Shown: piece by piece, positions 26,920-29,187 of the stretch | Numbering within the stretch: the stretch's first letter is position 1 | Layout: each line of letters starts with the position of its first letter | Translations under genes and position numbers: made by a program | The notes under the pieces: generated by a model | What the model was told of the DNA's origin: nothing | The model's input: the letters and a program-made list of their open reading frames with translations, nothing else | The model's database searches: none | Assembly (NCBI GenBank): GCA_030388725.1 | Contig: CP128857.1 | Span: forward strand, 3,049,621-3,079,620 | Length of the DNA stretch: 30,000 nt | Direction: 5' to 3' | Origin: Prodigiosinella aquatilis | GTDB lineage: Bacteria > Pseudomonadota > Gammaproteobacteria > Enterobacterales > Enterobacteriaceae

Positions 26920-27195
26920 TCAACAACAGGAGCCTGATAGCAAGTTCGCATGGCTATTGGGATTGGCGCTGATGGTCAGTCTTATTTCTCCAATGAGTAT
27001 TCCTTTCAGCTTATTTTCAGGGAGCATTCGTGGCGTTTTCTCCACCTGCTCAAGCGCGGCCTGCATCTCTCTTATTGCCTCTGCCAGATTGTCGGCATTG
27101 ACGCTAAGTGTGTAGATTTTTGCTGCAGTTTCATACTCATCGCAGGTTATTCCCATTAAGTATGAGTGTTTGGGTTTATTAGTTGCTGAACTCAT
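26920..27195 (-). CDS. Small protein S1 (91 aa), paralogue of 28806..29063
   Basis: MSSATNKPKHSYLMGITCDEYETAAKIYTLSVNADNLAEAIREMQAALEQVEKTPRMLPENKLKGILIGEIRLTISANPNSHANLLSGSCC. It starts 12 nt after the methyltransferase stop. The core is near-identical to S2. Confidence 0.65.
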   Translation of the reverse strand: MSSATNKPKHSYLMGITCDEYETAAKIYTLSVNADNLAEAIREMQAALEQVEKTPRMLPENKLKGILIGEIRLTISANPNSHANLLSGSCC

Positions 27196-27207
27196 GTGTT
27201 TCTCCTT

Positions 27208-27972
27208 TCAGAAATTGCATATCACAAGTTCCTGGCGCGGTGATGACTTACCCGACAGGCTGTAGTTGATGCAAACGGTCTGGATGTTGAGGCCTTTGAA
27301 AGCCTGCCTCATCTCTGGGATATCGTTCACCGATATAATCATTTTCCCTTTGATACTCCGCGCCAGTTCCGACATGTGGATATAGTTCCCTATTGGAAAA
27401 TCCACGCCATAGCCCTCTGTTCCCCAGTACGGTGGATCACAGTAGAACAGCGTATGCGGGCGATCATAACGCTCTATGCACTGGTGCCAGTCCAGATGCT
27501 CTATCAGCGTTCTGGACAGGCGCAGGTGTGCCATCGACAGTTCTTCTTCGATGCGCAGGAGGTTAAAGCGCGGCGCACTTGTGGTGGAAGTTCCGAACGT
27601 GTGATCGGCGACCTTGCCTCCAAACGCCTGTTTCTGAAGGTAGTAGAACCGGGCCGCACGCTGTATATCAGTCAGTGTTTCTTCTGGCGTATCCTGCAAC
27701 CATTTGTAGATCTGGCGACTCACCAGCGCCCATTTAAACTGCCGGACAAACTCTTCCAGATGGTGTTTCACTACCCGGTATAAGTTCACGAGTTCCCCAT
27801 TGATATCGTTGATTACTTCGGTCTTGCTGGGGGTCTTGAGAAAATACAGAGCAGCTGCACCGCTGAATGGCTCTACATAACAGGTATGAGCTGGGAAAAG
27901 CGGCAAAATATGTTTGGCCAGACGGCGTTTACCGCCGATCCATGGAACGATGGGCAAAGATTGTTCTTTCAT
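27208..27972 (-). CDS. DNA N6-adenine methyltransferase, Dam (D12-class) family; no cognate endonuclease nearby
   Basis: 254 aa. Motifs are PWIGGKRRLAKHI, the AdoMet-binding motif YVEPFSGAAALYF and the catalytic DPPY (FYCDPPYWGTEGYG). Confidence 0.85.
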   Translation of the reverse strand: MKEQSLPIVPWIGGKRRLAKHILPLFPAHTCYVEPFSGAAALYFLKTPSKTEVINDINGELVNLYRVVKHHLEEFVRQFKWALVSRQIYKWLQDTPEETLTDIQRAARFYYLQKQAFGGKVADHTFGTSTTSAPRFNLLRIEEELSMAHLRLSRTLIEHLDWHQCIERYDRPHTLFYCDPPYWGTEGYGVDFPIGNYIHMSELARSIKGKMIISVNDIPEMRQAFKGLNIQTVCINYSLSGKSSPRQELVICNF

Positions 27973-28019
27973 TATCCGTAAGCCTTTTACAGTCAGTGAA
28001 AATATGGCAGGCTAGTCCG

Positions 28020-28031
28020 GTCTCGCGAGAC
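28020..28031. other. Perfect 12-bp palindrome GTCTCGCGAGAC in the methyltransferase upstream region
   Basis: Read directly from the sequence. It is nested within an outer inverted pair, CAGTCAG (27990-27996) and CTGACTG (28031-28037). Confidence 0.5.
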
Positions 28032-28059
28032 TGACTGAACCTCGGTTGGCTCACAGCGC

Positions 28060-28166
28060 ATATCTGTGGGTTGATGGCCAGTCCGGTGTGGACGCACCGG
28101 GCTGGTCGTTCTTTCACTGTCAGGATGGGGCTTAGGGATACCCGTATGCTATTAATGCGGTTTAAT
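28060..28166. repeat. U1: copy of the bidirectional upstream region found in front of the lysis operon
   Basis: The blocks ATATCTGTG, GGCTGGTCGTTCTTTCA and CTATTAATGCGGTTTAA align with 29083..29187 (ATATCTGTG, GGCTTGTCGTTCTTTCA, CTATTAACGCTGTTTAA) at a constant offset of ~1021-1023 bp. TTTAAT at 28161-28166 is a -10 candidate 52 nt before the ATG at 28218. Confidence 0.6.
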
Positions 28167-28217
28167 GGATGCAGGGTCAGAGCTGCTGCACTAAATTCAG
28201 GAAGGGTATTTTCTGGT

Positions 28218-28790
28218 ATGGCAAAGTATTACACGGCTGATTCTGCAAATGGCTTACGCCCGTTTTGCGAGATTATTCAGGGAAACTACGAACCTAAAAA
28301 GCAAGAGCTGGCAACTTTCCTCACTCAGATGTACCCAGATGGGCTGTCAAAGCATGGCCACAATTACCTTTATAATCCCGGTCCGCTTATGGATGAAAAG
28401 AACGGTGATGGTCAGGCATTATTAATTGGCCTGGTATTTGAGCTGGTTCGCCGTAGCCATTTCCCGGAGAAACCATCCCGCTACCAGTCGTTATTTGCCT
28501 GTCAGCACATCAGCGAAGTTAAAGAATTCAGAGAGCAGCTGGCTGATGAGCGTGAGGAAGACGAGATCAGAACTGCACCTATCTATGAAGTATTCACCGA
28601 CGAGGCTGTTCATTGTGGCGATATGAGGTTGCTAAGTGATGATTGCCCGGTGCTTGAATTGTATCGCCGGGCATACCTTTACTGGTCTGGAGAACCTGCC
28701 CCAGTCAGGGAAGGTAAGGAAGAAGAAAAGCCGTTCTGGGAACTGCTGATTCCTCTGCCTATATTGATTGGTCGTCAGATATCGGAGTGA
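28218..28790 (+). CDS. Unknown-function protein D (190 aa); possibly DUF2441-like
   Basis: The start is taken at 28218 (MAKYYTADSANGL...). The in-frame upstream extension from 28071 lies in sequence homologous to the non-coding region U2 and is Arg-rich nonsense. Notable stretches are GLSKHGHNYLY and LVFELVRRSHFPEKPSRYQSLFAC. The DUF2441 resemblance is from memory only. Confidence 0.6.
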   Translation: MAKYYTADSANGLRPFCEIIQGNYEPKKQELATFLTQMYPDGLSKHGHNYLYNPGPLMDEKNGDGQALLIGLVFELVRRSHFPEKPSRYQSLFACQHISEVKEFREQLADEREEDEIRTAPIYEVFTDEAVHCGDMRLLSDDCPVLELYRRAYLYWSGEPAPVREGKEEEKPFWELLIPLPILIGRQISE

Positions 28791-28805
28791 GTAATATAAA
28801 AGCTA

Positions 28806-29063
28806 TCAGCTAATTTGCCTCCTTTTTGGGTTGTGGCTAATTGTCAGTTTTATCTGGCCGATAAGCATTCCATTCAGCTTATTTTCAGGGAGCATTCGTG
28901 GCGTTTTCTCCACCTGCTCAAGCGCGGTTTGCATCTCTCTTATTGCCTCTGCAAGATTGTCAGCATTGACGCTGAGGGTGTAAATTTTTGCCGCAGTTTC
29001 ATACTCATCGCAGGTGATCCCCATCAGGCAGAGTGAGCTTGATTTAGCCGTTGCCGAAGTCAT
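28806..29063 (-). CDS. Small protein S2 (85 aa), paralogue of 26920..27195
   Basis: MTSATAKSSSLCLMGITCDEYETAAKIYTLSVNADNLAEAIREMQTALEQVEKTPRMLPENKLNGMLIGQIKLTISHNPKRRQIS. It converges on gene D with only a 15-bp gap. Confidence 0.65.
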   Translation of the reverse strand: MTSATAKSSSLCLMGITCDEYETAAKIYTLSVNADNLAEAIREMQTALEQVEKTPRMLPENKLNGMLIGQIKLTISHNPKRRQIS

Positions 29064-29082
29064 ACGTTTCCCCTTCAGAAAA

Positions 29083-29187
29083 ATATCTGTGTTTTTTGGC
29101 TAGTCAGGTATTGGTGCGCCCGGCTTGTCGTTCTTTCAAAGTAATCATGCGTTTTGCCCCATCGCTTCACTATTAACGCTGTTTAAA
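29083..29187. repeat. U2: bidirectional upstream region between S2 and the holin-like gene (template of U1)
   Basis: See U1 for the alignment. The plus-strand -10 candidate TAAAAT lies at 29184-29189 with no good -35, which fits an activator-dependent promoter. A minus-strand candidate is CTGACT, 16 nt, TATTTT, reading toward S2. Confidence 0.55.

Follow-up and report, generated by a model that had tools for sequence, protein, structure and literature searches.

A 30,000-nt stretch of the Prodigiosinella aquatilis genome (hereafter the window, to which all coordinates refer unless another locus is named) carries a Mu-like transposable prophage, and in the interval between its repressor and holin genes two copies of a small gene, S1 and S2, lie as direct repeats on either side of a Dam DNA adenine methyltransferase gene and a gene for a DUF2441 protein. 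An earlier reading of this DNA from its letters (the first-pass annotation) had attributed the two copies to a direct duplication. Our analysis points to a different origin: the two-copy state very probably arose by one homologous crossover within dam, which would have joined two phages of different arrangement (type A and type B), and not by local duplication. The features of the region that bear on this question are the following:

26920-27195, minus strand: S1, a 91-aa small protein, type A allele, N-terminus MSSATNKPKHSY (open reading frame; WJV52402.1)
26954-27214: repeat copy 1, comprising S1 codons 1-79, the Shine-Dalgarno sequence and about 19 nt upstream
27208-27972, minus strand: D12-class Dam DNA adenine methyltransferase, a chimeric gene (PF02086, E 2e-27)
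27215-28059: 845-bp segment (Dam and an 87-nt leader) between S1 and the intergenic element
27655-27658: crossover point between type A and type B, within dam
28060-28205, plus strand: IG1, intergenic element copy 1, upstream of the DUF2441 gene, with a hairpin and a CTATTAAYGCKGTTTAA box
28218-28790, plus strand: DUF2441 protein, 190 aa (PF10386, 28.1 bits with a cut-off of 25; phrog_5663, E 3e-58)
28806-29063, minus strand: S2, an 85-aa small protein, type B allele, N-terminus MTSATAKSSSLC (open reading frame; WJV52405.1)
28822-29082: repeat copy 2
29083-29242, plus strand: IG2, intergenic element copy 2, in the gap between S2 and the holin gene, with the CACTATTAACGCTGTTTAAAAT box and the holin leader kept
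29243-29593, plus strand: holin, which opens the lysis and late operon (PF13272, E 9e-41; phrog_1528)

S1 and S2 are homologous genes under selection

A repeat search detected a direct repeat (26954-27156 versus 28822-29024) of 88% identity over 203 nt with a spacing of 1868, and BLASTN followed it over 26957-27214 versus 28826-29081 (84%), so that the similarity at a constant 1868-bp offset that had been described earlier was reproduced by both methods. At this fixed offset, 211 of the 261 bases of 26954-27214 were identical; as a control, random pairs of window segments averaged 25% identity, with a maximum of 35%. The core of the repeat (27005-27160), for which about 12 mismatches had been estimated, carries exactly 12 over its 156 bp; the longest stretch free of mismatches measures 55 bp (27005-27059). 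The encoded proteins share 84% identity over 79 aa (E 1e-47), but their N-terminal 12 residues and their C-terminal tails differ, and this pattern of a similar core with divergent ends, also noted in the first-pass annotation, was seen in both open reading frames. The homology crosses the start codon and the Shine-Dalgarno sequence and continues up to TTCAGAAA (27207-27214 and 29075-29082), and the stop codon of Dam (27208-27210) falls within this last stretch, as had been noted earlier. A second, shorter repeat (28060-28127 versus 29083-29149, 74-79%), absent from the first-pass annotation, extends the homologous unit beyond Dam. S1 and S2 are true homologues.

Both open reading frames are intact and both have a Shine-Dalgarno sequence. 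When nonsynonymous (dN) and synonymous (dS) substitution rates were computed by the Nei-Gojobori method, the core of S1 versus S2 (codons 13-63) gave a dS of 0.43, a dN of 0.008 and a dN/dS of 0.02, and the 79 alignable codons gave a dN/dS of 0.16 with a dS of 0.68. The dN/dS values were 0.16-0.39 for S1 versus other type A alleles and 0.12-0.23 for S2 versus other type B alleles. S1 and S2 are real genes with strong purifying selection on both, and the intact frames together with the low dN/dS of the core bear out the earlier suggestion that both copies are functional. A consensus scan for promoters and terminators returned counts like those of shuffled sequence, with no convincing S2 promoter.

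The two copies very probably stem from two phage lineages that meet inside dam

A set of 73 related loci was assembled from E. coli genomes, one phage record, GTDB genomes, IMG/VR, metagenomes and exact-protein look-ups, and these loci were annotated with S and DUF2441 profiles and with Dam and holin queries. In type A loci (19, and one partial) the order is S<Dam<holin>, with S immediately downstream of dam in an apparent dam-S operon. In type B loci (31) the order is Dam<DUF2441>S<holin>, with S placed tail-to-tail with the DUF2441 gene and beside the element that precedes the holin gene. The S alleles sort by slot, those of type A starting with MSSA[TI][NS]KP...SY and those of type B with MTSAT[AT]K.SSLC. 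S1 is 88-100% identical to the S proteins of type A loci, and the exact S1 protein accompanies the type A left flank in locus L022; the exact S2 protein was found on 23 contigs, with the type B arrangement in all the places listed. Of the 49 loci that showed both slots, not one had two S copies, and no E. coli complete genome or phage record in the collections covered at least 80% of 26700-29250. The two-copy state was seen only in two Prodigiosinella assemblies; an exact-sequence look-up returned S1, DUF2441 and S2 as WJV52402, WJV52404 and WJV52405, from Prodigiosinella aquatilis and Prodigiosinella sp. LS101.

Comparison of the window with both groups of loci located the transition. Against type A loci (L002, L027 and L022) the identity per 100-nt block was 98-100% from ~25800 to ~27600 and 83-89% thereafter, and against type B loci (L016 and L014) it was 78-90% up to ~27675 and rose to 97-100% from there to 30000. 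An alignment of five sequences showed an unbroken series of about 73 type A informative sites and then about 115 type B sites, with a single switch at 27655-27658. Furthermore, the L022 allele matches S1 at 100% identity and the alleles of L014-L021 match S2 at 100%, so that S1 and S2 are not each other's closest relatives, as copies made by duplication would be. The window thus has the marks of a mosaic junction, namely flanks nearly identical to different lineages, a single switch of informative sites, and parental arrangements that both exist in single-copy form.

The left arm, with the repressor, the membrane protein, S1 and the 3′ part of dam, would then come from a type A parent, and the right arm, with the 5′ part of dam, IG1, DUF2441, S2, IG2 and everything from the holin gene onward, from a type B parent. 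Because the crossover would have taken place in the shared dam gene, the recombinant would have received both slots, and diverged alleles would in this way have come to bracket a 1.87-kb segment. Modular (mosaic) evolution of temperate phages via homologous recombination at shared genes is established for lambdoid and Mu-like phages, and the event proposed here is ordinary phage mosaicism: a clean single crossover in a conserved gene, non-identical modules around it, and arms that are nearly identical to different present-day lineages. It differs from the usual case in that the parents hold the same small gene on opposite sides of dam, so that the recombinant carries diverged alleles as direct repeats. 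What had the appearance of a duplication with an inserted methylase would accordingly be a textbook-clean example, with a crossover that is located to ~4 bp and two parental arrangements that continue to circulate.

Other routes to the two-copy state were weighed. A two-copy ancestor that suffered one loss in each lineage would yield the same three arrangements, and the direction of the change is unprovable from sequence, which counts against the crossover reading. Such an ancestor is nevertheless unlikely, since each arm has a nearly identical counterpart among single-copy phages of the present day and only the two Prodigiosinella assemblies showed two copies. We consider it very improbable that a ~255-bp S segment was duplicated in situ, with later divergence of the copies and insertion of Dam between one of them and its promoter. 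The repeats are direct and at a constant offset, the homologous unit resumes beyond Dam in the intergenic element, and the Dam-containing insert is flanked by a 7-bp microhomology, as such a history would have it; but each copy has a 99-100% identical counterpart in a different single-copy lineage, yet the copies are separated from each other by a dS of 0.4-0.7, which argues that no duplication took place in this genome. In addition, the parental switch within dam is clean, and the Dam indel is common to all 19 type A loci and thus predates this genome. The claim that a direct duplication created two paralogues was therefore abandoned. Ongoing gene conversion between the copies was also considered as the cause of the high core identity, given that the core dS (0.43) is below that of the flanking codons (1.0 and 2.3) and that a 55-bp tract is perfect, and was rejected as hardly credible, since the S2 protein is identical to the single-copy type B S with zero substitutions versus L014, S1 is identical to the L022 allele so that no conversion tract is visible, and a low core dS is also found between alleles of separate single-copy phages, with hybrids such as P0025.

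The 55-bp perfect tract would allow RecA-dependent deletion between the repeats. The 1868-bp deletion product that the first-pass annotation had predicted, with S directly before the holin gene and without Dam or DUF2441, was found in 0 of the 73 loci. The nearest arrangement is that of two Salmonella loci (L047 and L048), which read DUF2441>S<holin> without Dam.

The dam segment and the intergenic elements

When the S1 copy was compared with the S2-IG2 region, an extra 845 bp (27215-28059) was found between TTCAGAAA and ATATCTGTG, beyond which the homology resumes, and the sequence GCATATC is present at both edges of this segment (27217-27223 and 28058-28064). The proposal that Dam had been inserted between the small gene and its promoter thus gave a correct description of the type A arrangement, which differs from type B by this 845-bp indel, but the indel is an old fixed feature of 19 loci and does not record an event in this genome. 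In the older history the slots would be related by indels around a unit made of S and the intergenic element, one indel of 845 bp (Dam and its leader) and another of ~1 kb (DUF2441, S and the second copy of the element). The 87-nt dam leader (27973-28059) is conserved in both phage types, and it carries a second near-perfect palindrome, AGTCCGGTCTCGCGAGACTGACT.

An alignment of 11 intergenic regions delimited a conserved element of ~110-130 bp upstream of the DUF2441 gene (IG1) and of the holin gene (IG2), with the layout TATCTGTGGGTTGATGRCCAG..GGTG-N4-5-CACC..CTGGTCGTTCTTTCA ... CTATTAAYGCKGTTTAA. Type A phages have one copy of it, located between dam and the holin gene. IG1 contains a plus-strand hairpin (28073-28110) with a 17-bp stem and a 4-nt loop, followed by CUUUCA and located upstream of the late-promoter-like box, with a folding energy of -30 to -38 kcal/mol. 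The hairpin beside dam is conserved in all the related prophages: among 16 distinct variants, 99.3% of the cells were paired, 5 pairs had compensatory changes and several G.U pairs were invariant, and none of 500 shuffles matched this result. The invariant G.U pairs argue for selection on the plus-strand RNA of the hairpin. The corresponding hairpin of IG2 (~29095-29132) has decayed to about -10 kcal/mol, both in the window and in type B phages. The conserved hairpin could be a terminator that shields the lysis operon from read-through of the repressor operon. An Rfam scan of 25400-29700 gave no match.

S is a narrowly distributed protein family

S1 and S2 had no match in Pfam, PHROGs, PADLOC or NCBIfam, and 18 S members compared with Pfam at E<=10 returned noise only (e.g., DUF7307 and DUF2730 at E ~0.003-0.03). 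An exhaustive HMMER search of 1.84 billion cluster-representative proteins gave 8 matches, three of which were long repetitive proteins and were rejected, so that only five small-protein clusters were left. A tblastn search of S2 against 50,697 phage records had no match at 1e-3. Profile matches of S in the PDB were limited to designed repeat proteins with a common "VDADNPADAI" helix motif, and they were rejected as spurious. A distant S subfamily (..FLFGIRTGEKNKTYTLSVDA..) was found in E. coli, Arsenophonus, Symbiopectobacterium and Pseudomonas. S is a small and very narrowly distributed protein family that is near-universal in one group of Mu-like prophages.

One S protein from Enterobacter cloacae (P0025) is a hybrid whose N-terminus is that of the distant subfamily and whose C-terminal two-thirds are of the S1/S2 type, and the C-terminal tails of the family (..SRKPC, ..SRSPY, ..NSHANLLSGSCC and ..KRRQIS) swap independently of the core. 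These hybrid alleles and swapping tails point to recombination within the S gene, with a tail that is probably dispensable.

AlphaFold2 models of S built from 25- and 27-sequence alignments had mean confidence scores (pLDDT) of 53.9 and 52.7, and only a helix at residues 37-53 was moderately confident. Pfam scans revealed no helix-turn-helix or other nucleic-acid-binding signature in S. It had been speculated that S adopts a HicB-like fold. S resembles the N-terminal domain of HicB-type antitoxins in its small size, in a hydrophobic pattern that suggests strand-strand-helix-strand, and in a D/N-x-L-x-E-A-I helix start; it departs from HicB in having no HicB family among its Pfam matches at E<=10, no HicA-like neighbour (the neighbours being Dam, DUF2441, the holin and the membrane protein) and AlphaFold2 models with one confident helix only. 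The HicB models PF15919 and PF05534 were absent among the matches of the 18 family members at E<=10, so that the speculation found no support in the sequence; the AlphaFold2 models were too poor for use.

S and DUF2441 recur as a convergent pair

The DUF2441 protein exceeds the gathering score of PF10386 (28.1 bits versus 25). Its only sequence relative in the PDB is the uncharacterised 2aua (profile match, E 4e-7), and its invariant residues include H46, R88-Y89-Q90, Y123-E124, D135 and E175. DUF2441 is a member of the Pfam ADP-ribosyltransferase (ART) clan (PMC7955679). In the literature the family was named only as a member of this clan, and PF10386 appeared in no paper.

In the window, the DUF2441 and S2 genes are convergent with 15 bp between them, and a convergent adjacent pair was found in 49 of the 70 S-bearing loci, in three phage backbones. 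The first setting is that of the type B Mu-like prophages. The second is found in Pseudomonas lambdoid prophages (with an integrase, lambda-P-like and P22-Cro-like genes and an S24 repressor), where the gap is 4 bp. The third is a Mu-like prophage of Arsenophonus, in which the pair follows Mor at the prophage end and the 3′ ends overlap by 77 bp; the 3′ overlap is 77-80 bp in Arsenophonus and E. coli 730V1.

From this recurrent convergent neighbourhood in three backbones, and from the place of DUF2441 in the ART clan, we tentatively suggest that S might be a partner, most likely a neutraliser or an immunity-type regulator, of a putative ART cargo encoded by DUF2441. S1 would then be an orphan that type A phages retain as protection or for a role independent of DUF2441. 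Known ADP-ribosyltransferase toxin-antitoxin modules include DarT-DarG, ParT-ParS, RES-Xre and MbcT-MbcA. The S/DUF2441 pair is similar to them in that an ART-clan protein is encoded beside a small conserved protein, on mobile elements and near the prophage immunity region. It differs in that the genes are convergent and not co-directional, known antitoxin domains such as a macrodomain or Xre are absent from S, co-occurrence is incomplete and no PADLOC model covers either protein.

Several observations weigh against a partnership. Purifying selection acts on S in the 19 type A loci, which have no DUF2441, and DUF2441 is found without S in L044 and L045, which have an unrelated small gene instead, and in L046, where it is alone. 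The convergent neighbour of S in L066 is an unrelated 182-aa gene. The divergence of the two proteins is discordant, since L006 and L007 have an S 91% identical to that of the window but a DUF2441 only 63-64% identical, and L003-L005 have an S at 37% but a DUF2441 at 73%. A convergent orientation is atypical for protein toxin-antitoxin pairs, and the genes of type II systems are adjacent and co-transcribed, whereas those of S and DUF2441 are convergent. PADLOC had no match for either protein, and AlphaFold2 gave no confident structure of S. The earlier idea of an antitoxin-like partner receives some support, as regards the DUF2441 protein, from the convergent pair in three phage backbones, and it is called into question by the occurrence of S alone in the 19 type A loci.

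Going further along this line, DUF2441 and S may be envisaged as an undescribed two-gene phage cargo module, in which an ART-fold effector (a defence factor, a superinfection exclusion factor or an addiction toxin) would be accompanied by a convergent inhibitor that belongs to no family, and the orphan S of type A phages would serve as counter-immunity against DUF2441-bearing rivals. We regard this extended proposal as unlikely. If it were true, the Prodigiosinella recombinant would carry a cognate and an orphan inhibitor, and if the pair were an effector-inhibitor module it would be a new phage-borne ART system, which would explain why S is retained in phages without the effector.

Other roles of S

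It is also conceivable, if rather doubtful, that S is a core regulator tied to the intergenic element, acting in the timing of the lysis and late operon or in immunity (e.g., as an antirepressor-like protein), and that DUF2441 is unrelated cargo. Among the surveyed enterobacterial Mu-like loci only L044 and L045 lack S, the transcription of S invariably runs away from the intergenic element, with dam in between or not, and the repressor gene is never more than a few kb distant; the neighbouring slot is variable (DUF2441, the 182-aa gene of L066, or nothing). This role sits poorly with the lack of a helix-turn-helix or other nucleic-acid-binding signature in S and with a Mor-family activator already encoded at 17638-18057. 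Moreover, S and DUF2441 travel together into backbones without this intergenic element and holin, and L044 and L045 swap S for an unrelated gene yet keep the phage backbone.

An improbable role for S is that of a Dam-associated factor, i.e., a regulator or an accessory subunit of the methyltransferase, with a logic analogous to that of Mu Com and Mom; S2 would then be displaced. As in Mu com-mom, a small open reading frame abuts a DNA-modification gene of a Mu-like phage in the type A slot, where S starts 12 nt past the dam stop codon in an operon-like manner in 19 loci (in the window, S1 likewise starts 12 nt downstream of dam), and nearly all the Mu-like loci with S have Dam. But S is downstream of dam, and not upstream and overlapping as com is with mom, it has no Com-like Cys4 zinc finger and lacks the four conserved cysteines, and in the 31 type B loci an opposite-strand gene separates it from dam. 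Dam is also missing from several S-bearing prophages, namely the Salmonella loci L047 and L048, the Pseudomonas lambdoid prophages and that of Arsenophonus. A further observation concerns dam itself, which is broken by an internal stop, a frameshift or an insertion in L002 (4498-5262 of that locus), L009, L011 and L013. S is intact there, which suggests that S does not depend on Dam.

Variation of the repressor-holin interval in related prophages

The interval between repressor and holin genes is a cargo hot spot across the relatives. Salmonella loci L044/L045 (1797-2963; 4627-4923) carry an HSDR_N-domain restriction-like gene and, in the S slot, an unrelated 98-aa P-loop-like gene. In the metagenomic locus L066 (4212-4760), DUF2441 is replaced by the 182-aa gene convergent with S; it has hydrophobic segments and belongs to no family, and a tentative assignment as a SLATT-type membrane effector was dropped because it had no Pfam match. 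In Pantoea stewartii ATCC 8199 (L010, 6171-8843), the S gene is split in two by a ~2.7-kb insertion, which is probably an insertion sequence element; this prophage looks degraded, with no Dam or early genes nearby.

Other features of the prophage

The Mu-like signature of the window consists of a DDE transposase, an AAA transposition ATPase, Mor and GemA, and a profile scan returned the rve and AAA_22 domains. The remaining features are the following:

17170-17484, plus strand: LysR-family open reading frame with the helix-turn-helix domain only, 104 aa
17638-18057: Mor-family activator (E 5.5e-42)
18024-18491: GemA (E 7e-38)
20044-20748: DUF3164
20944-22110: MuB-like AAA ATPase
22121-23914: DDE transposase
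25556-25744: Ner-like regulator
25781-26191: CI-type repressor
26225-26821, plus strand: membrane protein, 198 aa (phrog_12025)

With its DDE transposase, MuB-like AAA ATPase, DUF3164, GemA, Mor, Ner-like and CI-like regulators, holin and SLT lysin, the window resembles the BcepMu/KP12-type Mu-like prophages of Enterobacterales, from which it differs in that its repressor-holin region holds both alternative cargo arrangements together. Related prophages extend past the holin gene with an SLT lysin, Mu gp27 and the Mu portal.

At the other end, at 17170-17484 and ~17485-17640, the LysR-family open reading frame ends after 104 aa directly before the Mor end of the prophage, and this truncation suggests that a LysR-type regulator gene was the target into which the Mu-like element inserted by transposition. 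The 198-aa membrane protein, which is encoded directly 3′ of the repressor gene, has a glycine-zipper-like middle and a C-terminal transmembrane segment, with a weak PH_gly_zipper match in L022, and it is confined to one type A sub-lineage. This protein (26225-26821) may be a membrane or exclusion protein expressed in the lysogen.

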